Virus record (IMG/VR): IMGVR_UViG_3300037067_018433
DNA: 64,000 bases
DNA from: a virus
Lineage: Duplodnaviria > Caudoviricetes
Reading direction: 5' to 3' (one strand)
Below the pieces are notes generated by a model. That model did no database searches. It had not been told where the DNA came from and worked only from the letters and a program-made list of their open reading frames with translations. Shown in pieces: positions 8,723-57,507 of the stretch (its first letter is position 1; every line of letters starts with the position of its first letter). The position numbers were made by a program, and so were the translations under genes.

Positions 8723-9208
8723 ATGGAACGAGCCGAAGAGGTTGCCCAGTACCTTCAGGGTTCCCTGCTCGAACGACTCAGGAAGATCGCGGCTGACGAA
8801 GCGGCTGCGTCGACCAAGGTGGCGGCCGCTCCCCCTCCGACTCCGCCTCACGACCCTCCCCCTCTTCCGCTGATGAAGAAGGTGGCGCACCTGTCTTCAT
8901 CCGAGCGTGAAGCACGCCGCGCCCACGGCGCTACCGCCGTCAACATGCTGGCGGACATGCTGTACGGACCGCGGGTCGGTCAGGAGCAGAAGCTCGCGGC
9001 GGCCATCGCCGGCGAGACGTTCAAGGTGGCGGCGAGGGACCTGGCGGATTGGGCTCCTCGATCCAACCCCGTCATCCAGAGCGTGCTGGCGCAGGCGAAT
9101 GTGAAGACGGCGTCAGCCGGTGACCGGGAGACCGCCGAGTACGTCGGGCGCCTGTTGGCCCACGGGCTGTACGCCCGGCACCTGGAGGCGACGGGCGCGT
9201 GCCGATAA
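8723..9208 (+). CDS. K-x-A-rich putative head protein
   Basis: 6 of 7 lysines are in K-x-A; GRLLAHG motif. Confidence 0.65.
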   Translation: MERAEEVAQYLQGSLLERLRKIAADEAAASTKVAAAPPPTPPHDPPPLPLMKKVAHLSSSEREARRAHGATAVNMLADMLYGPRVGQEQKLAAAIAGETFKVAARDLADWAPRSNPVIQSVLAQANVKTASAGDRETAEYVGRLLAHGLYARHLEATGACR

Positions 9209-9738
9209 CAGGCCGTGATCTGGCTCCGATGGCCGACGACGCGTTAGTGCTGGCGACCAGGGTGGTTCGCGCCCTGCGTCAGAAGCAGGAAAAGAAGACG
9301 GAGAAGAAGAAGATGCCGACCAAGACCGCCGAGGAGCTGAACCTGCTGGGGGCCATCGCGTTCGGCCGGGCACTCGCCGAGAGGGATCTCGAGCCGTTCA
9401 AGCTGGCGTACCTGAAGGGCACGACCGTCAAGACGGCGGCCGCCGCAGCGGAGTGGCTCAAGGAGCTCGAGCAGCTGACGAAGAACGCGGACGCCGCGGA
9501 CGTCGCACGCGAGCACCCGTACCTGTCGACGGTCCCGGGGCCGAGAACGGCTGTCGTGAAGGGGCAGGGGCAGGAGCGCGAGACGCACAAGAAGCGCGCG
9601 TCTCTGGGTTCCGCCTACGATACGTTCGCGCAGACGCTGCCCGAGGACCAGCGTGAGTCGTTCTTCAAGATCGCGGAGAAGGTCAACGACGACGTCATTC
9701 GAGCGGCGGCCGTAGTGCTGCCGGCGATGGGGCGCTGA
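9199..9738 (+). CDS. K-x-A-rich putative head protein
   Basis: KTA, KLA, KTA, KNA, KRA, KIA; FGRALAE motif; true start may be further downstream. Confidence 0.65.
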   Translation: MPITGRDLAPMADDALVLATRVVRALRQKQEKKTEKKKMPTKTAEELNLLGAIAFGRALAERDLEPFKLAYLKGTTVKTAAAAAEWLKELEQLTKNADAADVAREHPYLSTVPGPRTAVVKGQGQERETHKKRASLGSAYDTFAQTLPEDQRESFFKIAEKVNDDVIRAAAVVLPAMGR

Positions 9739-9740
9739 CC

Positions 9741-10112
9741 ATGTGGCGCAAGTTCTGGACCTGGCTCAAGGACAAGGTCTGGCCCTGGCTCAAGAAGTGG
9801 TGGAAGTGGATGCTGTTCCCGATCGGCATCCTGCTGTTCATCCTCAGCCTCCGGCGGCGAACGACGACGGTCGTGGTGAGCGACGGACACGCGACCGACC
9901 TCGCCATCAAGAAGCATGACGAGCAGATCGCACAGCAGGTGACGGAGGCCGAAGCGAAGGCGGCTGCGGAGCTGAAGAAGATCGAAGAACAGCACGCGGC
10001 GACCATCGAGAGCCTCAACGCCGCACAGCGTCTCAAGTATGAGGAGTTGAAGCAGCAAGGTCCGCGCGAGATCAACGCGTGGCTGTTGCGGGTGGGTAGG
10101 GGTGAAGCATGA
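9741..10112 (+). CDS. membrane-anchored coiled-coil protein (possible lysis/spanin-like)
   Basis: Trp/Lys amphipathic N-terminus, one TM helix, coiled coil. Confidence 0.55.
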   Translation: MWRKFWTWLKDKVWPWLKKWWKWMLFPIGILLFILSLRRRTTTVVVSDGHATDLAIKKHDEQIAQQVTEAEAKAAAELKKIEEQHAATIESLNAAQRLKYEELKQQGPREINAWLLRVGRGEA

Positions 10113-10606
10113 CCACCAAGTCGCGCATCAGCCTGTTCTCCGTTCTGCTCATCATCGCCCTGGTGTTGACCGCCTGGTGCTGGCCGGCGAATGCCGAGGA
10201 CTTCCCACCGGGTGAGGACCAGATCGTACCGTTGGCGGTGGGTGACCGGGCACCGTTCGAGGGCCAGCTGTTCGAGACCACAACTGCGATCAGGTGGGGC
10301 TTTAGAATTCAATCACTGCGCCTGCGCCTGGATGCGGATGTGGCGGCTGCCAACGAATCGTGCGCGGTCCAGACCGAGCTGCTGACCACCAAGCTCAACC
10401 TTGCTCAGGAGCGGTTCGACTTCAACGTCACCATGCTGACCGACGCTCGGGATCAGCTCCAGGCGCAGGTCGTGCAGCTGACCGAGGCACTCGCCGACGC
10501 CCAGGATACGCCATGGTACAGATCCTGGACGTTCGGGCTCGTCGTCGGCATCGTTGGCGCTGGGCTGTTGGCGGTCGGCGGTGCGTACCTCGCATCAGCC
10601 ATCTAG
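10109..10606 (+). CDS. signal peptide + coiled coil + C-terminal TM protein (possible lysis accessory)
   Basis: N-terminal hydrophobic signal ending ANA; C-terminal TM after PWYRSWTFG; ATGA overlap. Confidence 0.55.
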   Translation: MTTKSRISLFSVLLIIALVLTAWCWPANAEDFPPGEDQIVPLAVGDRAPFEGQLFETTTAIRWGFRIQSLRLRLDADVAAANESCAVQTELLTTKLNLAQERFDFNVTMLTDARDQLQAQVVQLTEALADAQDTPWYRSWTFGLVVGIVGAGLLAVGGAYLASAI

Positions 10607-10692
10607 CGAATATCTGCGACCGCACCGCACTGGCTACGATTCAGACTAAAGGAAAAGGGAGAGGTAGGACCGGCTACGGCCGGCGTTTCTCC

Positions 10693-10983
10693 CTAGGCAG
10701 CGATGAGGTAGACGCGGGTGGGGATTCCGGGATCCGTGAGCGTGACGATGGCGAAGGTCCCGGGCGCGGGCGTCACCAGCTGGTAGACGCGTCCGGTGTC
10801 GGGGTCGACCCGCGGTTCGCAGGTCGGCGGCGTTCCGGTGTACGCCACCAGGCACTCGGGGGGCACCCACAGGTGCAGCTCCCTCTTCATGCCGATGACC
10901 ACCAGCTCTTCGCCCGGCTTCTCCCCGGGAACCACGGTGCCGGCCTTGAGACCCTGGAGGAACTTCAGCGGCAGCTTCGTCAT
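10693..10983 (-). CDS. hypothetical protein
   Basis: ATGA overlap, GGAG SD. Confidence 0.6.
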   Translation of the reverse strand: MTKLPLKFLQGLKAGTVVPGEKPGEELVVIGMKRELHLWVPPECLVAYTGTPPTCEPRVDPDTGRVYQLVTPAPGTFAIVTLTDPGIPTRVYLIAA

Positions 10984-11159
10984 GTCGCGTTCTCCCTGTT
11001 GCAGATGAGCCGCAGCGCGGTCTCCTGCATGTGATTGACGGACCCCCGGTTGATCAGACGTGCGCGGATGTGCGCCTCGCGGTGGCGGTCGCAGACGGCC
11101 ACCCTGTCCCCCGTGCGGCTATCCCGTCGACAGCCGCACGGTTCGTGGGTGACCCGCAC
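10980..11159 (-). CDS. small Cys/His hypothetical protein
   Basis: TAGTG overlap; CGC...CDRH. Confidence 0.45.
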   Translation of the reverse strand: MRVTHEPCGCRRDSRTGDRVAVCDRHREAHIRARLINRGSVNHMQETALRLICNRENAT

Positions 11160-11626: not shown

Positions 11627-11783
11627 GGAATCCTCCTTGCCCAGTGGGCGGAATGCCGGCGGGTGTCCCCTTGCCGACTCGGGGGCTCCGGAGCTACCCC
11701 GGAGTATTACGCGGCGTCCCAGCCGATAGGTGGGATCGTCAGCTGGTGCCTGGACGGACGCCAACTACTCTTCCCTGCATTGA

Positions 11784-27670: not shown

Positions 27671-27783
27671 CGGAGGCTCCTTTCGTGACCCGCCGGTGCG
27701 CAACCATCGAGGCTGCCACTTGGACGTGGGGTCTGTCAACGAAAAAAATGGACCGAAATCGAAACGCAGAGCGCCAGCAAGTT

Positions 27784-27812
27784 TCTTATGCCTATTTTGA
27801 TCTTTTATTTTC
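27784..27812 (-). promoter_or_regulatory. phage-specific bipartite promoter motif, copy 3 (heads the replication block)
   Basis: GAAAA-N15-GGCATAAGA. Confidence 0.65.
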
Positions 27813-27817
27813 GCGCG

Positions 27818-27853
27818 TTGACACGGTGCGGCGCCCGCGTCTAGTCTTGGATT
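27818..27853 (+). promoter_or_regulatory. sigma70-like promoter, leaderless
   Basis: TTGACA-N18-TAGTCT-N6-ATG(27854). Confidence 0.7.
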
Positions 27854-41300: not shown

Positions 41301-42805
41301 GGCTCGCTGGGATGTACGCAGCTGAAGGATGCGTACAGGTAATGTCGTACGACTACATGTGGAAGGACGGGGTGACCAAATCGAGGTACTCCTATCGTGT
41401 AGGCGTAGACATTGCCGAGCCGAAGGGGTTTCTGCAAAAGCGCGTCTTGCAGTCAGCAAAGCAGGAGCACCCACGCCTGCGGGTTACTCACGATAGCAGG
41501 AAGGTGCACTTCTACGACGTATCGACCGCTGCGTACTATGAGCGCTGTTTCGGCCGGTACGCTTGGAATAAAGGGCTTCCTGATGGGTGGACAGGCTTCA
41601 ACCGAAAGTGGCTTGGTGACTTCCTCGCTGGAATGATCGACGGCGATGGTACGGTATCGAGGAATCAAGAAAGCTGTTGGTACAATGTAGGGATCAGCAC
41701 GACCAGCGCCCTGTTGGCAGAGCAACTTCGTTGGATAGTGGAGCGCCTGGGTGGCTGTGCCCACGTCAACACTACCCCATGGAGGAAAAGCAAGATCAGG
41801 CGTAAGGATGGATCGATACGCCCGGTGGTATCCAAGCATCAAGGGTACATTGTGGGGTTCTCGTACACCGCACCCCTGGTGGGTTGGTTGGGTGAGTGCA
41901 CTAAGTTGGGCGGTATCCCTGCGCGAGAAAAAAACATCGAGCAGGCGCAACCCGAACTGGTGGAGTTCATACAGCCCATCCGTTTCTTGGAAACGCCTCT
42001 CGTGTATGATCTCGAGACGGAAGACGGCACGCTGGCCGCCAACGGTATCTGGACGCACAACAGTGGAGGCGTCGTGGGCAAGGGATCCGGGTCCTCGGCC
42101 ATCAACCAGTTCGACCGCATCGAGCACCTACTGCGCATGCCCAAGGTCATCCCGAACGCCGCGGTGTTGGCGGAGAACGAGGGGGTGGTCAAGTCGGTAC
42201 GTGCGGATCCCGCCGGCGGGTTCCGGGTAGGCATCGAGGCCCACGGGAAGCTGGTGGACCACCACGTTCCGGGTACGACTAAGCTGGCGCCCGACGTGCG
42301 CGCCGGGTATAGGGTGTCCGCCGGTACCCCGTTGTCGACGGGCTACATCAACATGCACGACCTCCTGCGCACGGCGGGCTTGCCCGCGGTCCAGAATCAG
42401 ATCACGAACGAGCTGGACGACATCTACCGGCCGCAGGGCATCCGTAGACGCAACGTCGAGGTCGTCGTGCGGGGCATCACCAACCTGGGCCAGGTCGAGG
42501 ACGCAGGCGGCCACGAGCACATGCGGCGGGGCGACATGGTCCCGCTGTCCGTGGTCCATGGGTGGAACGAGAGCCACAAGGATCACATCAAGGTGAGCCC
42601 GATGCTCAAGGGCATTGCGTTCGCACCGCTGGACCTCACCGAGGACTGGATGTCGAAGCTGCACCACGAGCGGCTCAAGGACACGCTGGTTGACGCGGCA
42701 CTCGAGGGCCACCAGGCCGACGTCGCCGGCCTGAACCCGTTCTCTGCGATCGCGTTTTCCCCGGGTTTCGGCACGGGGCTGTCCGGTAAGCCGGGGGCCT
42801 ACTGA
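35369..42805 (+). CDS. rpoBC: single-chain beta-beta' DNA-directed RNA polymerase, intein-containing
   Basis: beta motifs DTPEG, LVPF..NNSGNR.SM, HEDS, DKLSNRHAGKG, PSR-like PGRQNIGQ; beta' motifs PVLPPTMRP, R.VI.P, RDPVLH, catalytic GADFDGD, GYL, ALGE..TQL. Confidence 0.95.
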   Translation: MPAVPGQTKVRAVLDPNSEMEVVKDSATSAMNDVFPIVGKTRELRLGNVRVDDTLSWDDLRGQLDAKLNEKTWGVPLNGTLSLIDKLSGKVLDKKDVRLAELPKLTPRLSYLVNGQEYQLDKQWRLKPGIYARVKDNGELESHINVAGGERYALNFDPTSRRFMFDHAGSSIPLFPMLRALGVDDSTLRLSWGKEIYDANATEKYEGAIRKFYRVSTGKEAPSLDVAVQHLRQTLPAKELSPDVTEHTLGVRVDRLNGQALALASKNLLSIARGTREPDDRDAILFKNLFSTEDYVGEKIRVMGSGLRRRLTNTIDRHNNLEHLVYPGMFDKAVASVFTESAVSRIPTQDNPVEMLEGFSRTTIIGPGAIGDTRMVTDEAKAVDKSHLGFLDPIDTPEGEKVGIASHLALGVSKKGNELFTPVYDVRQKRMVPINTATFYRSNVALPDSVRWVERNGTKVPEAVDKQVRIAGPGNDMADVPWDKVDYVIPNAAMLMGTGTNLVPFAQNNSGNRLSMSARHLGQTVPLVHREAALVQSAGPEGKSMDRLPGALTAASSRVAGVVTKVERGAIHIRDAAGKSHTHQIYDYFPLNDKRTGIHAEPVVKVGDHVKDGQLIADSWFTKDGRLAIGANMRTAFLALPVMTHEDSVVISESAAKNLASLHLHRHQFVPDENTKVGKAPFAAYYPARYGSTQLDKLDSDGIVREGQKVVPGDPLTLALRPQQYTTETQAIARLSKSLVKPYADTSTTWEQDVPGTVVRVHKLPDGRAHVVIATEEPMQVADKLSNRHAGKGTVGAVYRDDQMPKDKNGKPVDIVMNPYAIPGRQNIGQVYEMAAGKIAIKTGKPYMTRNYQPGVDYGELLRKEMKEHGLDEQEELFDAQTGASLGKALVGPMYILKQRHQVDRKIHARAGGPGYPYDIDRQPRRGGEGGAQSLGGLGELALLAHGARSILREAHSSKSDMASQDEMWRAIQLGQPLPPPRPTFAQKKFEGYLNTLGVRLKKDGTRVQMVPLTDHDTLRMSSGALSKPNLTLKGHELIPETGGLFDPHVTGGLDGDRMSHIQLPESIPNPFFERGVLALTGMTQDQLLDVLGGRLAVDKERKLVAAKTPGSRTGSDAVGWMLDQVDVKKDAITVRAQLPKLTGTQLDRSNRKLRYLEALDEVGLRPRTAYMTSVIPVLPPTMRPLTVLPTGDLASDPLNETYKALGTVVSKYEDMDPSLPDRSRGRLRKELYTSLSALQGVGAGYKRIQGGETQGIMDVFTQPTAKHAWIFQHLFKPRQDLSARSVITPDPDITIDEVGVPHRIATEIFKPFTVRELSRVGYSPLQAEQMIKANDPMAEASLRKVMSEKLVLMKRDPVLHQQGIQALKPIMRKGLSITINPMIAAGYGADFDGDQTALFVPQSPAAQQEARGMLPSVNLLHKASGRPVYAPTNEMQLGLFRATTIKPDPHAPNYKTVEEALAAAVAGKQKWGTINVGGRATTMGRVRLWATLPMDMRKDAILYDPNVVWNSKVTGGFLKQLAETHAPEYAGVAQKVMNLGASNVYEQAFSLSLNDFRTDTQSRDAAFRTANSDIRKLPATLSKIDRDSKTVGIWVNAGEAMEKAHWDKVTANPPQLAMMALAGIKPSRDQYKQLVMAPMIVAGIKGKPIPVPVGHSFSEGLTTSDFWTQAQAARVASMRKTQEVREPGYLSKQIINTVADTVVASRDCGTTEGIAMAVDHPDVTDRYLAKAAPGAAAGGLVTQSLVDHWRKEGTQSVVVRSPLKCKLPQGICQRCSGLMGDGHLPGIGTNIGVIAGQALGERSTQLMLKSVHCLHEHTVVTVRCRKRVWSTTLGRLYERYAPTTRVGSAPVDDLSVWSNGKWNKIRSVVCHEQTPGTTMVMLKTRAGGFIISQDNHPHMLAEAPTICACGTIPKPENAKRRISGWWCRKCGVRVKVLAPSSPVLAVEPRSIGRRTHNAVLVPPPPADWVGVPLQDGWLAGMYAAEGCVQVMSYDYMWKDGVTKSRYSYRVGVDIAEPKGFLQKRVLQSAKQEHPRLRVTHDSRKVHFYDVSTAAYYERCFGRYAWNKGLPDGWTGFNRKWLGDFLAGMIDGDGTVSRNQESCWYNVGISTTSALLAEQLRWIVERLGGCAHVNTTPWRKSKIRRKDGSIRPVVSKHQGYIVGFSYTAPLVGWLGECTKLGGIPAREKNIEQAQPELVEFIQPIRFLETPLVYDLETEDGTLAANGIWTHNSGGVVGKGSGSSAINQFDRIEHLLRMPKVIPNAAVLAENEGVVKSVRADPAGGFRVGIEAHGKLVDHHVPGTTKLAPDVRAGYRVSAGTPLSTGYINMHDLLRTAGLPAVQNQITNELDDIYRPQGIRRRNVEVVVRGITNLGQVEDAGGHEHMRRGDMVPLSVVHGWNESHKDHIKVSPMLKGIAFAPLDLTEDWMSKLHHERLKDTLVDAALEGHQADVAGLNPFSAIAFSPGFGTGLSGKPGAY
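40808..42061 (+). mobile_element. intein (418 aa) with LAGLIDADG homing endonuclease
   Basis: Starts CLHEHT, ends VYDLET...GIWTHN before Ser; GWLAGMYAAEG and FLAGMIDGDG motifs; visibly lower GC. Confidence 0.93.
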
Positions 42806-44244: not shown

Positions 44245-46281
44245 ATGGAGCCTCTGTACTTGGAGAAGAAGTCGAGCGGTTTCAAGGTTGCTGTGGGGGC
44301 ACAGCTTCCTGTCAACGATGCAGAATGGCCTGCAGCGATACTGGGAGAGCTCTATAAACAAGCGCCGTACGTGGAGAATTTGTACCAAACCGAAATTCGC
44401 TTTGACGAGAAGGAGCCCGAGCGCGGGTACGCGTACGGCCGCATCCTCGTGTACAGCCGCACGAACCTTCCGCAGTCGGCGGCCTTCGGTCCGAAGGGCA
44501 AGGCGTCGGGCGTCCAGTACATCCAGATCCCGTTCATCGTGCGCGACTTCAAGGTGGCGCCGTTGGACCTGATCATGCTGGAGAACGGGGAGTTCCGGCC
44601 GCAGAACCGCAAGCGCCTGCGCGACGGCCTGTTCAAGCCCGGCGTGGCCGAGGGCACGGACATCGCCCGCTGGAACACGCTCATCAACATCGACCGCTAC
44701 CCGATGGGCATGGGTGGCCTGCCCCTCGACAGCCTGAACACCCAGATCCTGCCCTACGACAAGTTCGGCAGTGCGAAGACTGGCGAGCTGCTGGTGGACC
44801 TGGCGCCGCTCGACGCGTCGATCATGCTCAAGATCGCGGCGGCTCTCGACGATCCGTGGTGCCTCGACTGCCTCAAGAGCGAGGGGTACGCTGAGGTCCG
44901 CTCGTATCTGACCAAGGTCGCCGACCTGTCGACGGACGACGGTCGTCGGGATGCCGTGGCTCTGCACATCCCGCCCACGGTCATCCAGATCACACGCCTC
45001 CCGGGTGCCGTGTACCACGTCAAGCGCGCCAACGCCGAGGCCTTCGAGCCGGTGGAAGAGGACCTCGACCGGCAGCAGGCGACCGACACCCTGGGGCCGG
45101 ATGCGGTGAAGGCCGTGGACGAGACCGGGCTGGTCACGGTGTCCACCAGCCCCGTCGTGCGTACGGACTTGGTGGAGGAGAAGGTCGAGCCCATCAAGGA
45201 CTTCGGTCTGTACCGCGTCAAGACTCCGGATGGCCAGCAGCTGCTCGGGGTCGTGTTCCCGAAGATCGTCGACCTCGACGGCACCACGCTGCCGACCTCT
45301 GTCTTCAGCAACGGGTCCCAGAACGGCATCCAGAAGCAGATCGCCGGCGTGCGGGCCGGCGCGGTGACCGACCTGCCGACCGTGAGAGCGCCCAAGGGTC
45401 CTGGCGTGTTCTTCCGCCAGTCGGGCGCTGAGGTCTTGGCGCTCATGCCGCTGGTGGTTGAGAACGTGTCCGAGGACCCGGAAGGTACCCGAACGTACGA
45501 CGCGACCACCATGGCTGGGATGAAGGTGCGGCTGCACGCGACGCCCGGTGCTGTTGGTGTGGCCGAGGCCGGCGAGAACGAGTACATGATGCCCGGGGAC
45601 ATGAAGTTCATGCCGCTGCCCAACGAAGGGCACGTGGCGCTGGTCGAGGCGCCCGAGGACTTCGTGAAGCTGGGTCACGCCCGCCGCTCGAGCCTCAAGA
45701 TCGTGTACCATGGGGACGATCGGTACACGCTGGACGGCTGCGGCCTGGACAAGCTGGGGGCCCGCGCCCACCGGTACATCGCGCCGGAGGATGCGCTGTT
45801 CCTCATGTCGACCGTCGGCTTCCACCCGGAGTTCGCCGTCGCCAAGCTGGCTCGTGCGCGGGAGACAGGCGTCGTGACCGTGCCCAAGCTGCGGTCCATC
45901 ACGACGCTGTCGGAGAAGCTGGCGTACGCGCGCAAGAACCTGGCCGACCACGGCTACGAGAAGTGGGCGTCCCGCCTGCCGAAGCCGCAGTTCCTGGTCA
46001 AGGAAGCGCTACTGCTCAACGATCCCGCGTCGCTCGACAACATCCTCGGCCTCGGGTTCATCAACCCCCACAACATCTCGGTGTTCATCAGCTACATCCC
46101 GGAGCTGGAACGGACGCTGGGCAAGGTCTGTCAGATCCTGTTCACTGCGCGCCTGGGGGAGCCCGACGGTTCTGAGCTGGAGGCGGCGGCCGAGCGCGCC
46201 ATGCACGGACTGGAGAGCACCATTTCCGGGCTGGAGCTGGTAGGCCTGGAGATGCAGGGCGGGGACGATTCCGGCTCCTAG
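44245..46281 (+). CDS. large K-x-A-containing putative virion protein
   Basis: 678 aa; GGAGG SD; many K-x-A sites; LGLGFINP.N...F..YIP motif. Confidence 0.7.
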   Translation: MEPLYLEKKSSGFKVAVGAQLPVNDAEWPAAILGELYKQAPYVENLYQTEIRFDEKEPERGYAYGRILVYSRTNLPQSAAFGPKGKASGVQYIQIPFIVRDFKVAPLDLIMLENGEFRPQNRKRLRDGLFKPGVAEGTDIARWNTLINIDRYPMGMGGLPLDSLNTQILPYDKFGSAKTGELLVDLAPLDASIMLKIAAALDDPWCLDCLKSEGYAEVRSYLTKVADLSTDDGRRDAVALHIPPTVIQITRLPGAVYHVKRANAEAFEPVEEDLDRQQATDTLGPDAVKAVDETGLVTVSTSPVVRTDLVEEKVEPIKDFGLYRVKTPDGQQLLGVVFPKIVDLDGTTLPTSVFSNGSQNGIQKQIAGVRAGAVTDLPTVRAPKGPGVFFRQSGAEVLALMPLVVENVSEDPEGTRTYDATTMAGMKVRLHATPGAVGVAEAGENEYMMPGDMKFMPLPNEGHVALVEAPEDFVKLGHARRSSLKIVYHGDDRYTLDGCGLDKLGARAHRYIAPEDALFLMSTVGFHPEFAVAKLARARETGVVTVPKLRSITTLSEKLAYARKNLADHGYEKWASRLPKPQFLVKEALLLNDPASLDNILGLGFINPHNISVFISYIPELERTLGKVCQILFTARLGEPDGSELEAAAERAMHGLESTISGLELVGLEMQGGDDSGS

Positions 46282-47308: not shown

Positions 47309-47969
47309 GCGCGCAATGGATTTCCGGCGCATCGGTGGGGCGGCGGCCCCCGACACGCACGTGGTGTTCGACGATCGGTTCTACCTCGAGTACCTGAGCG
47401 CCGACGGCACGGACACCGTGTACCACCTGTTTGCGCTGCCGGAGTACACGGGGCCCTGGGCGCCACCCGACGGCATGAACTGGATGCGTGCGTCGTTGGA
47501 GGCGTTCCGCGTGCGCGCCGCGCTGCCCTATGAAGGAAGCAGCGCCTGGTGCCACGCGCAGTGGGACAGCGAGCCGCTTCCAGAGATTGTCCACTATGCC
47601 GTTCGACGCGTGGACGACATGGTGGGGGACTGGTTGGTATCGTTGGACATCGGGCCCGAGCGCATCACCGGCGGCGCGCTGCTGAAGAAGATGCAGGAGA
47701 AGATGTTCCCCGGCCGCTCGTTCTTCGCCGCGCGCATGGCGCTGCTGGATCGCTTCCGTTCGCAGACTGTGCGCGAGGTGCTGGCCGCCTTGGGTCAGCC
47801 GCTACCCGACGGCGCGGACATCGACGAGGAGCTGAAGACACCGATGGCCGCGCTGTTCCCGCTGCACCCCGGCATGTGGTACGTGCGGTTCCGCGAGCTT
47901 CAGAACCGAGTGACCGACCACAAGTTGCTGGCCGAGTCGTTCCTCGGTAGCCTGGTTCGCAGTGCTTGA
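47289..47969 (+). CDS. hypothetical protein
   Basis: AAGGAGGT SD; overlaps the TerL start. Confidence 0.65.
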   Translation: MDPKQAERAMDFRRIGGAAAPDTHVVFDDRFYLEYLSADGTDTVYHLFALPEYTGPWAPPDGMNWMRASLEAFRVRAALPYEGSSAWCHAQWDSEPLPEIVHYAVRRVDDMVGDWLVSLDIGPERITGGALLKKMQEKMFPGRSFFAARMALLDRFRSQTVREVLAALGQPLPDGADIDEELKTPMAALFPLHPGMWYVRFRELQNRVTDHKLLAESFLGSLVRSA

Positions 47970-49740
47970 TCACGCTGAGTTCGTGCTAGACCAGCCCGAG
48001 CCTGTTCTGGGCTCGGAGGCCGACGTTCGGCGCTTTGCTGGAAAGCCGATGGAGCTCCTGCCGTCGGAGTTCGTGGAGCTCAACTTCGAGTTCCCGGGTT
48101 ACGGCGCGTTCAGTTTTGAGGGACGTGAGTATCTACGTCCCATCTACGACTCAGATGATCAACTGCAATTGGTAGTCAGCGGCCGTCAGTGCGAAAAGAG
48201 CACTTTGCGCGGCGATCAGTGCATCCACTTTGCGGTGACCTACCCGGGCATCCGCGAGATGTACGTCACGCCTTCCGACCGTCAGACCAAGGACTTCAGC
48301 TTCGAGCGGTTGCGCAGCCCGCTGCTCGACAGCCCGAAGCTAGCGCGCTACATCAAGTCGTCTCAGGACCTCAGCGTCTACGACCCCGTCCTCACCATCG
48401 GCAAATCGACATCCGTCATCAGCCTCCGCAGCTGCTTCCTGCACGCGGACCGCGTCCGTGGTCGACGCGCGGACGTCCTGTTCATCGACGAGCTGCAGGA
48501 CATCCTGGCCGAGAACATCCCGGTCATCGAGCAGTGCGTGTTCCACGGGCGCCCGGACCTCAAGCTGATCTACTACAGCGGCACGCCCAAGACGTTCGAC
48601 AACCCGCTCGAGACCATGTGGTCCCAGTCCTCCACCATGACCGAGCTGATGTTCCCCTGCCGGCACCACGGGCTTCCGGGGGAACCGTGGACATGGCACT
48701 GGTTCCACATCACCCATGAATGCCTAGGGGACAAGGGGCTGATCTGTCCGAAGTGCGGTAAGCCCGTCCAATGGAATGATCCGAACGCCGTGTGGGTGGA
48801 CACTGCGACCAACGCCGCGGATCGCGACAAGCGGCCGGTCAAGGCCTACCACATTCCACAACCCGTCACGCCCATGGCGCACGATCCTGAGGGCAAGGCA
48901 TGGCGCATCCTCAAGCGGCAGCAGAAGGAATACCCCGCCTACCGGTTCTTCAACGAGGTCATGGGCGTCAGCTACGACTTCGGAAAGCGTCCGCTCACAC
49001 CGGCGGAACTCGCGCGCTGCTGCTACCCGGCGTGGGAAATGCGCCCCGATCAGCTCACCCACATGATGCAGCTATCGGGTGAGTACCCGGTGTACGCGGG
49101 CATCGACTGGGGTGGGGAGGAGTACGCGTACACGGTCATCGCGCTGGGCACGTACGCGCTCAGCCCCGACCCCAACCGCTTCTTCCAGTTCTACTGGCAC
49201 CGCTTCAGCGGCAAGGAGACGAGCCGCGAGGAGCAGCTCGAGCAGCTCTACAACTTGATCAAGGCGTTCCGCGTCCGGTACACGGTCGCCGACTACGGCA
49301 TGGGGTACTACGAGAACGACTGGCTGGTCCGGCGGCTAGGCGCCAGGAAGTTCGCCAAGATGCAGTACCTCGGCAAGCAGCAGGGTAAGATCGTGTGGCG
49401 TCCCAAGATCGGCTGGTTCACGGCGTACAAGAGCGCGGTGGTCCAGGACTACCTGGCGGCCATCAAGAAGGAAAAGATCGTGTTCCCCGCCTGGTCCTCG
49501 TTCGGCGACCCGTTCGGCCAGGACATGCTCAACCTGCGCGGGGAGTGGAATGAACGCCGGCAGGAAATGATGTGGGGGCACGGTGCCCAGCAAGCGGTCG
49601 ACTCGTTCCACGCGTCGCTCTACTGTCTGACCGCGTCGCTGCGTGACCACCCACGCCCGGACATCACCCACCTCACGGTGGACGACACCATCGTTGATCC
49701 TGAAGCGCTGGGAGAAGAAGTACCCTTCCGGCAGGTCTAG
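47962..49740 (+). CDS. terL: terminase large subunit
   Basis: Walker A GRQCEKST, RVRG, Walker B FIDELQD, SGTP, nuclease GIDWG, DYGMG, DSFHA. Confidence 0.9.
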   Translation: MLDHAEFVLDQPEPVLGSEADVRRFAGKPMELLPSEFVELNFEFPGYGAFSFEGREYLRPIYDSDDQLQLVVSGRQCEKSTLRGDQCIHFAVTYPGIREMYVTPSDRQTKDFSFERLRSPLLDSPKLARYIKSSQDLSVYDPVLTIGKSTSVISLRSCFLHADRVRGRRADVLFIDELQDILAENIPVIEQCVFHGRPDLKLIYYSGTPKTFDNPLETMWSQSSTMTELMFPCRHHGLPGEPWTWHWFHITHECLGDKGLICPKCGKPVQWNDPNAVWVDTATNAADRDKRPVKAYHIPQPVTPMAHDPEGKAWRILKRQQKEYPAYRFFNEVMGVSYDFGKRPLTPAELARCCYPAWEMRPDQLTHMMQLSGEYPVYAGIDWGGEEYAYTVIALGTYALSPDPNRFFQFYWHRFSGKETSREEQLEQLYNLIKAFRVRYTVADYGMGYYENDWLVRRLGARKFAKMQYLGKQQGKIVWRPKIGWFTAYKSAVVQDYLAAIKKEKIVFPAWSSFGDPFGQDMLNLRGEWNERRQEMMWGHGAQQAVDSFHASLYCLTASLRDHPRPDITHLTVDDTIVDPEALGEEVPFRQV

Positions 49741-50615: not shown

Positions 50616-51455
50616 ATGCGGAGCCTGGCAACCACCCCTGACCTGCAGGCCGATGCCACGATCGACCCGCAGGAGCTTCGTGAACTGGGTGAGCGGGCGG
50701 CGCTGAAGTTCATGAACGACCACGCGCCCTTGGTAGAGGCCGTGGCCCGCACGCTGGAAGCCAGCGGGCGGACGTTCAACAAGCACCACGTGCAGCGGGT
50801 CGTGGAGTACGCGAACCTGCGCGCGTTTCGAGCGCTTCGCCAGCCTGGCCCTGGGGAGATCGGTAAGGTCGTCGAGTTCCCCGAGGGTCCGGCAACGGCT
50901 GTCGCGGTGATCGCCCGTCTGCGACACACGACGCCCACGGAGGAGAAGATGGGATCTCTTGCGCACCTCGTTTCGCCCCCGACGGGCATGGCCAAGCTGG
51001 CGGAGGCCGAGCGTTGCGGCTCCATGTACGGCTTCATGCTGAACATGCGGGACGCGGCAGACGCCTGCCGCTCGGAGGCCGTTGTGCTCCAGCACAAGAT
51101 GGCGGCCGTCCAGTCGGACATCTGCCGACACGCCGAGTACGTGCTGCGCAACGGCGCTGAGCTGGGCGACGTGCACGCGGCGTTGGCCGCCGGATGCCCC
51201 AACAAGCCGGTGATGCTCAAGATCGCCATGGACCTCGTCCTGGCGAAGGCCGCGCCACGCGCCGGTCTGTACGGCGAGGAGGGGGCTGCATCGATGGAGA
51301 AGCGTGCGTCGGGCACCCCCAACCCGAACCACCCGCTGGTGACGAAGATGGCGGAGATGGTGTCGCTCTACGACCAGCTGAGCGTCAAGAGCCGCGCCGC
51401 TGAGATCCTCGACGAGCAGCGTCGGAACCTCTACCGGTCCGCAGTGGGAGGTTGA
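50616..51455 (+). CDS. K-x-A-rich putative head protein
   Basis: KLA, KMA, KIA, KAA, KRA, KMA; RVVEYAN motif; TGnTAATCT upstream. Confidence 0.65.
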   Translation: MRSLATTPDLQADATIDPQELRELGERAALKFMNDHAPLVEAVARTLEASGRTFNKHHVQRVVEYANLRAFRALRQPGPGEIGKVVEFPEGPATAVAVIARLRHTTPTEEKMGSLAHLVSPPTGMAKLAEAERCGSMYGFMLNMRDAADACRSEAVVLQHKMAAVQSDICRHAEYVLRNGAELGDVHAALAAGCPNKPVMLKIAMDLVLAKAAPRAGLYGEEGAASMEKRASGTPNPNHPLVTKMAEMVSLYDQLSVKSRAAEILDEQRRNLYRSAVGG

Positions 51456-51457
51456 TC

Positions 51458-51907
51458 ATGGTAGCGCAGACCCTGTCCCAGCGACTCCCCAACCTCATCG
51501 GTCAGGCCGCGGCGCTGGCTGGCATCACGGTGGGCGCCGAGTACGCCGCCGGCCTGATGCGCCGGTCCATCAGCGCCATCAGCTACAACAACGACTTCCG
51601 TCGGGTGCTGGACGCCAGCCCCGACCTCAAGACCCGCGACAGCCAGCAGGTGATGGACCGCTTCCGCATCCTGGCGACGCTGGCCCCCACGCTGTCCAAG
51701 GACCCCACCATCGCCGCCGGCTGGATCCGCCAGACGCTGGAGTTCCCGGTCATCACGCCGACGGTGCTGAAGGACCTGGTGTCGGTGGAGGAGTCGGCGC
51801 GCGGTCTGCGCGGCGGGAGCATGGGCAACGTCAGCGTTCCTCAGATCATGGCGCAGCACATGTCCAAGGGTATGCAGAGCGGCCGGGGCGACGACCGAGG
51901 CTACTGA
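51458..51907 (+). CDS. hypothetical virion-module protein
   Basis: GGAGG SD; LAPTLSKDP motif. Confidence 0.65.
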   Translation: MVAQTLSQRLPNLIGQAAALAGITVGAEYAAGLMRRSISAISYNNDFRRVLDASPDLKTRDSQQVMDRFRILATLAPTLSKDPTIAAGWIRQTLEFPVITPTVLKDLVSVEESARGLRGGSMGNVSVPQIMAQHMSKGMQSGRGDDRGY

Positions 51908-53547
51908 TGATCGAGAAGCTGGCCTTCATCCCGGAAGTCGACGAGTTCGGGTTCGAGCGCGTGGTGCCGTTCGGCACACACGGCAACGGCCTGGAGAAGG
52001 TGGCGTCGCTTCCAGATGGTGTCCAGAAATACGCGGACAAGTTCAAGCCGGAGCATGGGGAGCTTGGTCTTCTGATCACAGCAATGGGTGGTCTGGAGTG
52101 CTGGGGCCCGAACTCGAACTCCGATGGATTCACGAAGAGCTCACTCCTCCACCTGCCCTCCGATTGGGCCGACGAACCTGAGCACGATCGTACAGTCTCA
52201 GCAGGGTGGGCTTGGGGCATCCCCACGTTCTATGGAGCCAAGCTGTTCGCCCATCACCGGAACAAGAAGGATGATCAGTCCGTCGGTGACGTGGGGTACG
52301 TGGCGTGGGACCCGAAGATGCAGTGGGTGCTGCTCGCTGTACTCATCGACCCGGAGCGCGCCAAGAAGCGGGGTGGGGACTGGATGCTGGATCGTGTGGG
52401 CCAAGGTCGACCGATCCCATTCAGTATGGGGTGCCGCGTACCCTTCGACGTGCTCTCCACGAGCTCCGACTGGGGCGAGTACGAGAAGGCGCTGGCCACG
52501 TACGACCCAGCCAAGCACAAGCTGCCGGCGGACGCCATCCTCCACTACCACGACCACATCAAGCACATCTACGGGCTCAGCCGGACGCGCAAGGACTACA
52601 CCGACGAGATGCTGTTCCACGCCAACGAGGTCCGGCGTGATGGACGGAAGATCTACGTCGAGAACCCCTACCCCTTCTTCTTCGATATCTCCGCCGTCGG
52701 GGTCCCGGCCGACCAGACGGCGTGGGCCATGATGAAGCTCGGGTCGCGCTGTGCGATCACGGGCACCAAATGCGCCGGGCAGTGCGGCGCCGGCACCTGC
52801 CAGCAGTACACACTGCCCGGCGCCATCCTGGAGGAGCGATTCGACATGCTCATGGACAAGGCGGCGTCCCTGCATACGGCGTCCTTGGGCAAGGGCGCCG
52901 TCGTTCGCAAGGGCGCGGACATCGAGAAGCAGGTCTCTCCCCAGATGCAGCAACAGACGCCGCTGAAGGACGACGAACCAGAGCTGCCCAAGGGGTTGCT
53001 GGATCGTATGGGGGACAAGCCCCTGTCCCACAGCCTGTCGACCCCCACGTGCATGGGCATGCTGCTCAAGCCTCGGGAGTTCCGGCGCGTCGTCCTCATC
53101 CGCATGGGGAAGAAGGGGCTGGCCGACAAGCTGGACCACGAGGGCGCCGACCTCCCGGCTTCCATCGACGAAGAGTCCCCTGGTACGATGGGAATCGATG
53201 CGTTCGACGACGACCTGGCGAAGATGCTGGAACCGATGCTCGGCGAGAGGAGCTGGTTGGGCCCCATGGCAGTGAAGAAGATCCACATCACCATCATGCG
53301 CGGTGGCCCGTCGGGTGACGAGCCCGAGGTTCAGCGCAAGGTGGCGGCCCTGTACAACGGCTACCGCAAGCAGGCTTCCGCCCTGATCGAGAGGGCGCCC
53401 GTGGTGCTGTCCCGTCGACCGAGCCTGCGGGCCAGCGTCTATGGGTTCGGGGACCTGACGAAGCACGGGGGCATCCAGATCAACGGCTCGCTGACTCCGC
53501 TGGTGACCAGCAAGACGCGCGACTACTTCCGCGCCGCGTACGTGTAG
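51907..53547 (+). CDS. prohead maturation protease (serine)
   Basis: GPNSNSDGF, FAHHRN (His), FSMGC (Ser), FFDIS.V..PAD motifs; upstream of scaffold-like genes and MCP. Confidence 0.7.
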   Translation: MIEKLAFIPEVDEFGFERVVPFGTHGNGLEKVASLPDGVQKYADKFKPEHGELGLLITAMGGLECWGPNSNSDGFTKSSLLHLPSDWADEPEHDRTVSAGWAWGIPTFYGAKLFAHHRNKKDDQSVGDVGYVAWDPKMQWVLLAVLIDPERAKKRGGDWMLDRVGQGRPIPFSMGCRVPFDVLSTSSDWGEYEKALATYDPAKHKLPADAILHYHDHIKHIYGLSRTRKDYTDEMLFHANEVRRDGRKIYVENPYPFFFDISAVGVPADQTAWAMMKLGSRCAITGTKCAGQCGAGTCQQYTLPGAILEERFDMLMDKAASLHTASLGKGAVVRKGADIEKQVSPQMQQQTPLKDDEPELPKGLLDRMGDKPLSHSLSTPTCMGMLLKPREFRRVVLIRMGKKGLADKLDHEGADLPASIDEESPGTMGIDAFDDDLAKMLEPMLGERSWLGPMAVKKIHITIMRGGPSGDEPEVQRKVAALYNGYRKQASALIERAPVVLSRRPSLRASVYGFGDLTKHGGIQINGSLTPLVTSKTRDYFRAAYV

Positions 53548-53556
53548 GAGGATCCG

Positions 53557-54483
53557 ATGAGTGATCAGCAGCATCTGCAGCGCGCGGCACGTGACCTGGT
53601 CCTCGACCACCTCATCGCGCCGGATCTCGACCCCGCCCAGATGTCGGACGAGAAGCTGGCGTCGCTCTACGACCAGCTGATGGACGTGCCTGGTGCGGTG
53701 AAGGTGGCGTCCGACGAGGCAGCTGCGCTGGCCGCGGACCCCCAGGTCCTCGACGTGGCGAAGGTAGCGGAGGTCGACATCCTCGGACGCACCGCGGCCC
53801 ACGCGTACGCCAACACCTTCTTCAAGGGCCTGGACAAGTACGCGCAGGGGCTCGAGGGGATCCGCGCCCGCCTGATGGGCACGTCACCCGAGGAGCGGTT
53901 GGAACGCGAGCGCGCCCGCCGCGAGCAGGAGCTGAGCCTCAAGCCGCGCGAAGTGAGCCTGAGCCTCGGGGCACGCGGCGCCGGCGGCAGCCTCGACACG
54001 GATCTCGCGCTCCAGGGTCTCGGGGTGACGGAGGCAACCCAGCGCCAGGAGCTGGCCAACCAGCTGCGCAAGTTGCAGCTTGGTGATCAGTACGCGCGTC
54101 GTGAACGTGAGGAGCGCCTCTTCCAGCAGCTGCACGGGGAGAACCAGGTGGCGGGTCCCCTGACGCATGCGCTGGCCGGTGGTGCGCTTGGCGGGATGGC
54201 GGGGAGCACGGGCCGCTCCATGACCGGGGGTCTGGCGGACGCCATGAAGACGCTGGGCGTCGGTGGTGGGCTGGGCGCGCGTGCGCGTTCCGCGATGATG
54301 CAGGGCGCCGAGGGCATGGGGAAGTTGAAGCTCCCCGGCATCCGCGGTGGAGCAACGGCCGGTCTGGGTGTGTACCTCGCCCGCAAGCTGCTCACGAACC
54401 CGAATCCCGCGACGCGTCCCGTCACGCGTCTGGAGCGCGAGCGGTACATCCCGGGGTCGATGCAAGCGGACGTTCAGCCGTAG
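53557..54483 (+). CDS. putative internal head protein (tagged N-domain + glycine zipper)
   Basis: KVAEVDILGRTAAHAY...KYA; C-terminal AGGALGGMAG. Confidence 0.6.
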   Translation: MSDQQHLQRAARDLVLDHLIAPDLDPAQMSDEKLASLYDQLMDVPGAVKVASDEAAALAADPQVLDVAKVAEVDILGRTAAHAYANTFFKGLDKYAQGLEGIRARLMGTSPEERLERERARREQELSLKPREVSLSLGARGAGGSLDTDLALQGLGVTEATQRQELANQLRKLQLGDQYARREREERLFQQLHGENQVAGPLTHALAGGALGGMAGSTGRSMTGGLADAMKTLGVGGGLGARARSAMMQGAEGMGKLKLPGIRGGATAGLGVYLARKLLTNPNPATRPVTRLERERYIPGSMQADVQP

Positions 54484-54533
54484 CGCTTCCTACGGAGGTC
54501 GGTGTTTCTGTACTCTGGGGATAGGAGCTGCTG

Positions 54534-55238
54534 ATGAACCGCGAGATGGCTGCCACGTTCGGACATGCTCCCGTAGATCCTGGGATGGTCAAGGAAGCCG
54601 CGTATCGCGACGCGTTCACCAAGCTGGCGGCCGAAGAGGGGATCGACCTGACCAAGCTCTCGGACATCGACCTGGCTAACGAGTACTCGGCGTTCTGCGG
54701 CCAGCTGAAGATCGCGGAGATCCAGCAGGCCAAGTTTGCGGAGTTCGAGCGCGTCGGTCGGGCACTAGCCCGCCACTGGTTCTACAAGGCAGCAGCCGAG
54801 GCCGCCGCTCTCCCCCTGTCATTGGAGCAGCAGATCGCGGAACTCCAGGGTCTGGATCTTCCGCCGGATGTTCTTGAACAGGGCGTGCAGAACCTTTCGG
54901 CGCAGAAGGCGCAGATAGCTGCGGGTCGCGCCGAAGCTCTCCGTGCGGCACGTCAAGCAGAGATGACAGCCAAGGCGACGGGAGAGGGCGCTGCGTGGGA
55001 GCGCGCGTTTGGCGCGGCATCCGCCAAGAAGCCAGGGTTGTGGTCTCATCTCAGCCCGGCTGGCTTGGGTGAAGCCCTGTCCAAGGGGAATTGGGGTACG
55101 GCGCTGCGCAAGGCCGCTCCGTTGGGAGCGGCGGTTCTGGGTGGCAAGTACCTCCTCGACCGCCGACGTGAGCGAGAGATGGCTGGACAACAGGCGTCCA
55201 TGGGTGCGCCTCCGGCCGTGAGCATGGCGGGCGTCTAG
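54534..55238 (+). CDS. putative internal head protein, paralogous N-domain
   Basis: IDLTKLSD.DL and KFAEFERVGRALARH resemble the 53557 protein. Confidence 0.6.
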   Translation: MNREMAATFGHAPVDPGMVKEAAYRDAFTKLAAEEGIDLTKLSDIDLANEYSAFCGQLKIAEIQQAKFAEFERVGRALARHWFYKAAAEAAALPLSLEQQIAELQGLDLPPDVLEQGVQNLSAQKAQIAAGRAEALRAARQAEMTAKATGEGAAWERAFGAASAKKPGLWSHLSPAGLGEALSKGNWGTALRKAAPLGAAVLGGKYLLDRRREREMAGQQASMGAPPAVSMAGV

Positions 55239-55339
55239 CCCGCGGGGAACGAGACGCGCTGCGGAGAGCGGACGACCCGCTGATGGGTTGAATGCTCGGG
55301 GATGCGTGACCGCGGCTCGGTCCTACAAGGAACAGGACG

Positions 55340-56065
55340 ATGGCCAACGAGAACACCGAACTGCAGGCGTTCCTGCAGAAGAACAGTCCTACCATGACCA
55401 AGGAGGCCATGGAGGGGGCGATCAGGGAGATCGAGGACAGCTTCATCAAGGCGGCGACCGGTGCGGGAAGCGCCGTGACCGCGGCCGAGCTGGTCAAGCT
55501 GGCTGAGGAGCATCCCGACCAGTGGCACAACCTGGTCAACAACTACGTCAGCGAGTGCCTCGTCGCCGCCGAGCAGGAGAAGCAGGCGGCCGCGGTTCGG
55601 GAGCAGGAGGCGCTCCAGAAGCAGGCGCAGAGCGCCGAGGCCATCGCGCTGGGCCAGCTCATGGCGCACGCCATGGTCGACGAGCTGACCAAGATCGGCG
55701 AGGAGATGTACGCCGCGAAGAAGGCGGACGACGAGAAGGACGAGAAGGGCGAGAAGGAAGACAAGGACAAGAAGGACGGGAACCCCTTCGCCAAGAAGGA
55801 CGACGACAAGAAGGACGACAAGAAGGACGACGACAAGAAGGACGGTGGGGACCTTCCGCCGGCGCTCGCGCAGGCCATGAAGAGCGAGGAGAAGGAGGGG
55901 GCCGCCAAGCCGGCGCCCCTGCCGCTCGAGGTGGTCGAACTGCGCAGCGCCATCCGTACCAAGGTGGCGCACCAGGTCCCGATCACTCCGCAGGAGGACC
56001 GCATCCTCGGTCTGTGCAAGCTGGCCGAGAGCGGGTACAACGTCGACTGGTCCGGCGTGAAGTAG
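55340..56065 (+). CDS. scaffold-like protein
   Basis: Helical, many K-x-A, LGQLMAHAMVDELTKIG, Lys/Asp low-complexity tract. Confidence 0.6.
   Translation: MANENTELQAFLQKNSPTMTKEAMEGAIREIEDSFIKAATGAGSAVTAAELVKLAEEHPDQWHNLVNNYVSECLVAAEQEKQAAAVREQEALQKQAQSAEAIALGQLMAHAMVDELTKIGEEMYAAKKADDEKDEKGEKEDKDKKDGNPFAKKDDDKKDDKKDDDKKDGGDLPPALAQAMKSEEKEGAAKPAPLPLEVVELRSAIRTKVAHQVPITPQEDRILGLCKLAESGYNVDWSGVK
55727..55843 (+). repeat. low-complexity coding repeat (KKDDD / DEK)
   Basis: Tandem aagaaggacgac(gac) units. Confidence 0.7.
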
Positions 56066-56075
56066 GGGGTGGGCT

Positions 56076-57092
56076 ATGGAAACTCGCCGCCCACTCAAGG
56101 ATCTCATCGCAGCGGCCGTTGCGCAGGCTGAGCAAGAGAAGCTCGCAGCGCACCAGCCCAAGCCGGAAGTGAAGACCGCCGAAGCGGCTCCGGCCCTCGA
56201 CGTGGGGGACACCAAGGTGGCGCTGGCTCTGGCCAAGGTGGGTCATGAGCTGGCCGTCAACCTGAAGAAGCAAGCGGAGGAAGCCACCGCGGCCAGCGCG
56301 AGCCTGACGCGCGGACCTGCGCAGAGCGCGCCGCAGACCACGCTGGCGTCCCCCGGGCGCACCCCCGACATGTCGCCGTCCGCCGGTCCCCTCTCCTCGA
56401 AGGACACCTCCGAGAAGCCGGGGGCACCGTCGCTGACCCCGACGACCACCAGCCCGCAGCAGGAGTTCCCGGAAGCCAAGAAGCTGGCGGCTGCCCAGGT
56501 GCTCGCCGAGACCCATGCTCGGTACGCGGCGGCCGCCGCGGTGATGAACAAGACCGCCAACCAGCCGCTCGGCGGTGTGACGGACGGCGCCAAGCCGGTG
56601 GCTGGCGAGCCCCCGGAGAAGCGGCCGGACGCCCCGTCGTCCCACGGCACCCCGCTGCCACCCACGACCCCCGAGGCCGTGGCGGCGTTCACCAACCTGA
56701 ACGCCGACAAGCAGCACACCGCGGACATGCCGGCGCAGGTCGCGTCGCCCGCCGCCGGCGCCTCACGTCCGGACGCGGCCATGGCCCACGTCCAGGCCGG
56801 CGCGTCGACCGCAACCAAGGCCGCGGCCATGCGCGCGTACCTCAACGTGCTGCCGCCGACCAGCAAGCTCGCGGCCGCCATCCGCAATCAGCTGGCGGAG
56901 CTGAACAAGCAGGCGGGCGATCCGGCGCTGCCCATCAACCCGCCCGTCGACCTGGCTGCGCAGATGAACCCCACGCTGCCGCCGCCGGTTCGCGCTGATC
57001 TCCCCGGGTCCCCCGTGGCTCCGGGCATCGTCCCGACGCCAGACGCGCGGGGCAGCAACGACCCCGGCATTGCGCCGGCGTTGGTTCGGTAG
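56076..57092 (+). CDS. Pro/Ala-rich K-x-A-rich scaffold/head protein
   Basis: At least 9 K-x-A sites separated by disordered linkers. Confidence 0.6.
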   Translation: METRRPLKDLIAAAVAQAEQEKLAAHQPKPEVKTAEAAPALDVGDTKVALALAKVGHELAVNLKKQAEEATAASASLTRGPAQSAPQTTLASPGRTPDMSPSAGPLSSKDTSEKPGAPSLTPTTTSPQQEFPEAKKLAAAQVLAETHARYAAAAAVMNKTANQPLGGVTDGAKPVAGEPPEKRPDAPSSHGTPLPPTTPEAVAAFTNLNADKQHTADMPAQVASPAAGASRPDAAMAHVQAGASTATKAAAMRAYLNVLPPTSKLAAAIRNQLAELNKQAGDPALPINPPVDLAAQMNPTLPPPVRADLPGSPVAPGIVPTPDARGSNDPGIAPALVR

Positions 57093-57102
57093 GGAGGGCA
57101 TC

Positions 57103-57507
57103 ATGGAAGCCATGGAGAAGATCGCGAGCATGAAGCCCTACGAGCAGGTCGACCTGATGGCCGGCTCGCTCGAGAAGCTGGCGGAGAAGTGCAACAGCTT
57201 GTCCGTCGAGAACACGAAGATCGCAGCACAGCTGGAGATGGAGAAGCTGTGCACGCAGGTGCTGGAATCGGGGCAAACCCCGTGGACGTCCCGTGCGGAT
57301 GCCTTGGCCGGGCTGAACAAGCTCGCGGCCGAGGGCAAGCTGGACGCGCTGAAGGTGGGCCTCGAGCTGGGACCGGGCATGGTGGCCAAGGTGGCGAGCG
57401 GTCTGTCGTCCGAGACGCAGGTGGACGGCAAGACGCGCACTACGGACATCGCGGGTCACCGCGCCAACGTCCTGGCGGCGCTCACCGGAGGGGTCGCAGA
57501 CGGCTAG
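57103..57507 (+). CDS. K-x-A-rich scaffold-like protein
   Basis: KIA, KLA, KIA, KLA, KVA; GGAGG SD. Confidence 0.6.
   Translation: MEAMEKIASMKPYEQVDLMAGSLEKLAEKCNSLSVENTKIAAQLEMEKLCTQVLESGQTPWTSRADALAGLNKLAAEGKLDALKVGLELGPGMVAKVASGLSSETQVDGKTRTTDIAGHRANVLAALTGGVADG

Follow-up and report, generated by a model that had tools for sequence, protein, structure and literature searches.

Does a short motif that recurs along the proteins of an uncultured tailed phage serve as the address read by the phage's own head-maturation protease? The question is raised by a stretch of 64,000 nucleotides (hereafter the window) from the IMG/VR virus record IMGVR_UViG_3300037067_018433 (Caudoviricetes), part of an uncultured phage genome of 203,683 bp (~204 kb), in which the triplet Lys-x-Ala (KxA) recurs in a series of predicted head proteins; the original prediction held that a protease encoded at 51907 cuts after it. 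We called 68 genes in the window, which has a G+C content (GC) of 63–69% and is without a close cultured relative, using third-codon-position GC (GC3) and frame-specific GC statistics, and refer here to proteins by the first coordinate of their genes (Table 1). The enrichment of KxA is real and robust, and the triplet is probably the core of a longer signal recognized and cleaved by a prohead protease that the phage itself encodes at 51907.

An unbiased scan of all 400 one-gap residue pairs over all 68 window proteins placed KxA at the top (154 seen vs. 104.6 expected, z-score (z) 5.4). Among the other spacings tested, CxxC alone clearly outscored KxA, with AxxxA close behind; CxxC led the two-gap pairs (20 vs. 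3.5 expected, z 9.6), an excess that points to many small zinc-ribbon-type motifs in the window proteins. The head block was defined as the eight consecutive genes 50616–57507, between the terminase region and the capsid gene, and was picked by position and not by count, which avoids selecting proteins by their number of KxA sites. This block contained 48 KxA vs. 19.7 expected (z 7.2), an excess that was unchanged under shuffles confined to 15- or 30-residue segments. Thirteen control pairs (KA, KxxA, KxxxA, AK, AxK, AxxK, RxA, KxS, KxG, KxV, KxL, ExA and QxA) showed no excess in the head block, KA being seen 10 times vs. 19.9 expected, and the excess outlived the comparison with composition-matched shuffles by which the original prediction was to be judged. 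At the DNA level, the pattern AAR-NNN-GCN occurred 84 times in the coding frame vs. 5 and 0 times in the other frames, and because it is confined to the coding frame a DNA-level motif is ruled out.

Individual proteins were tested with composition-matched shuffles (100,000 permutations) at a false discovery rate (FDR) of 0.1. Eight passed: the 27854, 8723, 44245, 51907, 50616, 57103 and 56076 proteins and the minus-strand 6254 protein (6 vs. 1.88), three of whose six sites lie in a low-complexity Ala/Lys tail; the 55340 protein just missed the threshold. The remaining 53 window proteins were slightly depleted in KxA (55 vs. 68.4 expected).

The same pair scan was applied to bacteriophage T4 as a control. 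From gp67, gp68, gp21 and gp22 it gave IxE and LxE, the known cleavage motif of gp21, as its top two pairs, and it did not return them from the T4 terminase, sheath, tube and portal proteins. Since the T4 head core yields IxE/LxE, the composition-corrected scan recovers a real prohead-protease motif, and with T4 as the control a scan this simple can find such motifs from sequence alone.

The enrichment extends across relatives of the window. Our metagenomic test set comprised 80 loci, 21 of them with the full 10 kb upstream of the capsid gene, and in all 21 (GC 53–68%) KxA was enriched upstream of that gene (z 2.0–9.0; 781 vs. 333.6 expected when pooled, z 26.7), while the genes downstream of it were flat in the same relatives (z −1.1 to 1.6, with one locus at 3.0). 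The notion of a motif shared by a family of head-module proteins is thus borne out clade-wide for the head-core genes and does not extend to genes past the capsid gene. Around the pooled sites we found secondary signals (EK, LxK, MxK and KxxS), giving an extended consensus of approximately (L/M/F)-(E)-K-(T/I/L/V/Q)-A-(S/A/E), in which the favoured residue following the motif is Ser or Ala. Two IMG/VR contigs with capsid proteins 40–45% identical to that of the window displayed the same enrichment in genes at corresponding positions, and the positional counterparts of 57103 in loci L001 and L002 were likewise enriched.

The nearest cultured phages, Salmonella phage Arash and Vibrio phages D69, D148 and D181, share 22–26% identity with the window in the terminase, the capsid protein and the 51907 protein. 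KxA was enriched in four genes around the 51907 homologues of D69 and Arash and ranked first or second among one-gap pairs in both phages. Their scaffold-like proteins do not align with those of the window, the BLAST matches being the RNA polymerase, the protease, the capsid protein and one other protein. Genes in the window run from the terminase (47962) through the protease (51907) to the capsid protein (58049), and the order from protease to capsid gene is identical in D69, Arash and L002. Within the head-block proteins, Lys residues inside KxA were conserved more than other Lys (0.58 vs. 0.49 overall), with values of 0.45–0.70 vs. 0.14–0.41 in five fast-evolving proteins (50616, 53557, 54534, 56076 and 57103).

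The 51907 protein consists of a gp21/assemblin-fold domain (approximately residues 46–283), a disordered linker (281–354) and a helical C-terminal domain from about residue 355. Its AlphaFold model has predicted local distance difference test scores (pLDDT) above 90 for residues ~40–270, and residues 46–266 of the model align with T4 gp21 (5jbl_A) at a Z score of 9.8 (VIA-align; root-mean-square deviation 2.7 over 130 of 165 residues). T4 gp21 was the sole chain with Z of at least 8 among 48,161 representative chains, and herpesvirus proteases ranked next (Z 4–6.6). The gp21 fold was clear only with VIA-align, plain Foldseek on the 546-residue model giving a weak match (E 0.13). The profile of the 51907 family found no match among PDB sequences, and the protein matched neither the Peptidase S77 (T4 gp21) nor the S78 (HK97) sequence profile; on its model, it is classed here with the gp21 fold but outside those sequence families. 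The 51907 family is large: at 50% identity it has 1,815 representatives, of which 950 match with E ≤1e-10. In a 30-member alignment H117 (in HHxNKD) and S173 (in VSMG), 56 residues apart, are invariant, as are D181, D188 and H215, which are all candidates for the third residue of a triad. The assignment of 51907 as the candidate protease is supported by its fold and its invariant His and Ser.

KxA occurs in this protein at residues 4, 31 and 41 in the N-terminal part, 288, 318, 329 and 335 in the linker, and 478 and 488 in the C-terminal domain; the low-confidence, disordered segments amount to 25% of the chain and contain six of the nine sites. K31-x-A33, just before the catalytic domain, is shared by 28 of the 30 homologues and K318-x-A320, just after it, by 29, so that the flanking of this domain by KxA, noticed in the window copy, turned out to be conserved across the family. 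Other sites common in the family are at ~270/277, 335, 478 and 519, and 19 of the 30 homologues have a KxA near the C-terminus in a column without one in the window copy. Among 58 family members of 450–650 amino acids (aa), 470 KxA were counted vs. 180.6 expected, with an excess in every one of the 58.

Many homologues contain LAGLIDADG-type inteins (P0002, P0003, P0004, P0010, P0052, P0068 and P0145), which the window copy lacks. One insertion point lies between G175 and C176, two residues past S173, and another near residue 67–70, adjoining the invariant N69; intein insertion is typical of essential active-site regions. One intein-bearing homologue, P0068 (1,497 aa), also has an inorganic-pyrophosphatase-like domain (PF18823, aa 1000–1117) and another module of no known kind in its linker, with KxA at aa 751, 766, 979, 1117, 1129 and 1140 around the extra modules, and from its sequence looks like a self-cutting polyprotein with an enzyme cargo. 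At the start of the linker of 51907, a Cys-rich stretch (C-x6-C-x3-C-x5-C; window 52750–52800, aa 283–300) that is common to a few homologues (P0001, P0007, P0008 and P0138) may be a small metal-binding insert.

The EKVA reported near the N-terminus of the capsid protein is indeed present, and K22 and A24 are invariant in the alignment. Each of the 119 capsid homologues has a KxA among its first 40 residues, in most cases at residue 24, with the consensus GKEK[MILV]AE, and the capsid proteins of D69 and Arash carry K-E-A at the corresponding N-terminal place. EKVA is predicted to be the end of a short N-terminal propeptide.

On the reading that we prefer, 51907 would be a Ser-His enzyme of the gp21/herpesvirus assemblin fold, with a disordered linker joining the helical C-terminal domain, that acts inside the assembled prohead. 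It would free itself at K31-V-A33 and K318-A-A320, and the capsid protein would lose ~24 residues through a cut after E-K-V-A24. The scaffold-like proteins of the 50616–57507 block would be cut at many places, the KxA-dense and fast-evolving 55340, 56076 and 57103 proteins being scaffold or core components that are fragmented and then expelled. Leader segments would be trimmed from other late proteins (53557, 54534, 44245, 8723 and 27854), as suggested by sites in the N-terminal leaders of 53557 and 54534 and at both ends of 44245; 53557 is a candidate for an N-terminal propeptide followed by cargo. Cutting after a preceding Glu as a general rule is ruled out, Glu standing before Lys at 11 of the 99 window sites. 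Herpesvirus assemblins cut (V/L/I)-x-A↓S. Lys would occupy P3 and Ala P1, with the cut after Ala; we place it there because of the i/i+2 spacing as in (L/I)-x-E and A-x-E, the Ser or Ala after the motif and the A↓S bond cut by assemblins. Lys and Ala in KxA stand as far apart as P3 and P1 do in the (L/I)-x-E of T4 and the A-x-E of SPN3US (PMC10052503).

Several observations weigh against this scheme. No family was matched by the 51907 protein in Pfam and PHROG at E ≤0.01, hhalign of its profile with T4 gp21 gave a probability of 0.2%, and H117 and S173 are a candidate catalytic pair by their invariance. The 9199, 31062, 53557, 54534 and 32909 proteins are weak individually (p 0.02–0.05), and 32099–32905, listed as 32081 in the original prediction, is not enriched (1 vs. 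2.3); the recurrence of KxA stood for 44245, 50616, 51907, 56076 and 57103 among the proteins listed there. From sequence we infer the cutting at KxA, the scissile bond and the location of the substrates inside the head, and the published Arash virion proteome consists of protein-level coverage and a feature table, with no peptide-level termini. The 64 kb examined are also part of a 204-kb genome, which leaves room for a second protease encoded elsewhere. In the 27854 family (13 members) the KxA columns are among the best conserved, together with their surroundings, and the model of the 27854 protein is mostly ordered (mean pLDDT 75), with 3 of its 14 KxA in low-confidence segments and 10 of the other 11 in predicted helices or strands. 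The idea that this protein is shredded, as had been proposed, is not supported by such a model, and its KxA copies could serve structure or binding instead of cutting. Conserved, ordered segments of this kind are what would be expected if KxA were mainly a binding or targeting motif through which cargo and head-core proteins dock to the scaffold, the portal, the inside of the capsid or the protease, with none or a subset of the sites cut. The capsid-protein motif, too, lies in a conserved N-terminal segment, and the T4 leader combines a targeting sequence with a cut site, so that the two roles are hard to separate by sequence alone. We nevertheless regard docking as unlikely to be the main role, given that the motif is found in disordered linkers on either side of the catalytic domain of the protease itself, is repeated many times along single scaffold-like proteins, shows the P3-x-P1 geometry known from related proteases and leaves the same statistical signature as the true T4 cleavage motif.

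A different Lys-directed protease, of phage or host, might cut beside Lys with Ala secondary, 51907 being then its substrate or a protease of another specificity. Lys is enriched 15–18 fold over background at the sites vs. ~8 fold for Ala, and Arg is no substitute. This appears distinctly improbable, as no protein with a protease fold other than 51907 was found in the head block, it would be unusual for an enzyme to depend strictly on a residue two positions past the cut, and known gp21- and assemblin-type enzymes all read P3 and P1 (PMC10052503 and general knowledge). We consider it very improbable that the KxA excess lacks a function and arises as a by-product of residue composition, low-complexity sequence, helical periodicity or the common ancestry of paralogous leader peptides. 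Several carriers are Ala-rich (16–22% Ala) and some sites fall in low-complexity runs such as the 6254 tail, but the excess survives both whole-protein and 15-/30-residue shuffles while KA, KxxA, KxxxA, AxK and RxA are flat or depleted, and it is found in unrelated proteins (protease, capsid protein and scaffolds), in relatives of 53–68% GC and in cultured phages of low identity whose scaffold-like proteins do not align. A by-product is already contradicted by the control-pair test in the head block and by the metagenomic relatives.

The wider claim that KxA predicts the head proteome fared unevenly: the head-core genes are enriched, but the capsid protein, the portal candidate and two KxA-free proteins of the block, 51458 and 57553, carry few or no sites, half of the sites of 6254 fall in its tail and several of the proteins listed are weak. 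Outside the head block, the Lys counts given by the original prediction for 8723–9208 and 27854–29089 match ours. Pfam and PHROG scans of the KxA-rich proteins returned nothing useful, the 44245 protein having no match in either, and the model of 27854 had no counterpart in a fold search.

Table 1. Capsid, head-block and other genes of the window discussed in the text (KxA counts from composition-matched shuffles; aa, amino acids).
Feature	Coordinates	Strand	KxA seen vs. expected	p	Remarks
Ala/Pro-rich protein, 161 aa	8723..9208	+	6 vs. 1.43	2e-4	6 of 7 Lys in KxA
Neighbour of 8723, 179 aa	9199..9738	+	6 vs. 2.7	0.036	weak
First gene of long plus-strand late block, 411 aa	27854..29089	+	14 vs. 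3.39	1e-5	14 KxA among 28 Lys, ~25 aa apart
Candidate portal protein, 645 aa	32909..34846	+	6 vs. 2.2	0.02	weak PHROG portal matches; KxA weak
678-aa protein	44245..46281	+	10 vs. 3.39	9e-4	KxA clustered at aa 14–260 and 534–586; none at aa 261–533
Large terminase	47962..49740	+	3 vs. 1.8		phrog_675 (E 8e-41); not KxA-enriched
KxA-rich head-block protein, 279 aa	50616..51455	+	6 vs. 1.88		all sites in aa 127–244
Head-block protein, 149 aa	51458..51907	+	0 vs. 0.44		no KxA
Prohead protease (predicted), 546 aa	51907..53547	+	9 vs. 3.12	2e-3	gp21/assemblin-fold domain; invariant H117 and S173
Head-block protein, 308 aa	53557..54483	+	4	0.05	all KxA in aa 33–94; counts only within block test
Head-block protein, 234 aa	54534..55238	+	6		5 KxA in aa 20–85, 1 at aa 193
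Lys/Ala/Glu-rich candidate scaffold, 241 aa	55340..56065	+	9	0.014	KxA along whole chain
Ala-rich candidate scaffold, 338 aa	56076..57092	+	9 vs. 4.09	0.009	KxA along whole chain
Small head-core protein, 134 aa	57103..57507	+	5 vs. 1.55		
Major capsid protein, 373 aa	58049..59170	+			phrog_2522 major head protein; E-K-V-A at residues 21–24

The plus-strand 27854–29089 is a real gene, separate from a minus-strand gene that ends at 27670. The 183-bp divergent intergenic region between them (27671–27853) separates a minus-strand replication-type block from 27854 and the late genes that follow, and is likely a promoter region. Directly preceding the KxA-rich genes 8723 and 9199, 7277–8686 (plus strand) encodes a 469-aa protein with a sub-threshold match to the LigD 3'-phosphoesterase (PF13298, E 5e-7, just under the curated cut-off). 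A 2,478-aa open reading frame at 35369–42805 contains two segments similar to Arash gp216 (annotated as RNA polymerase subunit beta) and D69_0264, and is KxA-poor (7 vs. 12.6 expected). The Arash paper counts the polymerase subunits among the proteins most abundant in the virion, and the polymerase of the window may be packaged yet protected from cutting. The Arash virion proteome comprises 116 proteins, nucleotide-metabolism enzymes among them. Arash gp225 (L004 11754–12356) is KxA-dense (7 vs. 1.9) and labelled hypothetical, i.e. not reported in the virion proteome, and the KxA-rich gp220, gp222 and gp223 are labelled structural. As an anecdote, the labelling of gp225 fits a scaffold that is cut and expelled; the GenBank 'structural' labels for Arash disagree with the table of the Arash paper.

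We found no published report of a Lys-x-Ala prohead-protease motif in literature searches, and the phage G paper is without cleavage data. To our knowledge, the known head proteases of large phages (T4, phiKZ and SPN3US) all cut after Glu, and a gp21-fold enzyme reading Lys-x-Ala would be a new specificity class, with a P1 residue nearer to that of the herpesvirus assemblins. More tentatively, and with the odds somewhat against so broad a claim, KxA might be a clade-wide 'address-and-cut' code, in which a gp21-fold protease with a herpesvirus-like Ala at P1 delimits propeptides, scaffold fragments and swappable cargo (including enzyme domains in the protease chain) across thousands of uncultured phages of 160–205 kb. 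In that case, sequence would suffice to read which proteins are packaged and injected throughout the clade, and the Ala–Ser bond, being shared, would be a hint of the specificity ancestral to the phage–herpesvirus protease lineage. With a large protease family and two cultured members (Arash and D69), the rule, if validated, could be used to annotate propeptides, scaffolds and putative injected cargo of many environmental phages, whose genomes are now almost all hypothetical proteins.

Among known systems, T4 gp21 shares with 51907 its fold (Z 9.8), its place as a head-module gene before the scaffold and capsid genes, a motif with two-residue spacing that is over-represented in core proteins, scaffold proteins and the protease itself, and a protease flanked by its own sites; in T4 the (L/I)-x-E sites of gp21 lie in gp23, gp22, gp67, gp68 and internal proteins. 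The two differ in that 51907 has no detectable sequence similarity to gp21 (hhalign 0.2%; no Pfam or PHROG family), that Lys-x-Ala in place of Leu/Ile-x-Glu predicts a small and neutral rather than acidic P1, and that gp21 has 212 aa whereas 51907 has 546, with its long linker and helical C-terminal domain. The proteases phiKZ gp175 and SPN3US gp245 use (S/A/G)-x-E or A-x-E motifs, and in these large phages the protease undergoes self-cleavage and many head proteins carry propeptides in which the motif is repeated (PMC10052503, PMC5694885). The clade of the window resembles them in also encoding a multisubunit-type RNA polymerase beside the head genes, but its motif ends in Ala, not Glu, and it is unrelated, its closest cultured members being Arash and D69 (22–26% identity).

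The herpesvirus assemblins are related to 51907 in fold (Z 4–6.6), and the predicted P1 Ala followed by Ser or Ala resembles the assemblin A↓S bond. In contrast, the assemblins prefer a hydrophobic P3 where Lys is found here and have no sequence similarity to 51907, a protein of a bacterial virus; their triad is Ser-His-His, and in 51907 a putative Ser and His only are named. UL26 is laid out as protease, linker and C-terminal part, and it cleaves itself both behind the protease and close to the C-terminus (PMC4498786). The 51907 protein may have a similar layout, its protease-fold domain being followed by a 74-residue disordered linker carrying K318-x-A320 and a helical C-terminal part with a putative scaffold role.

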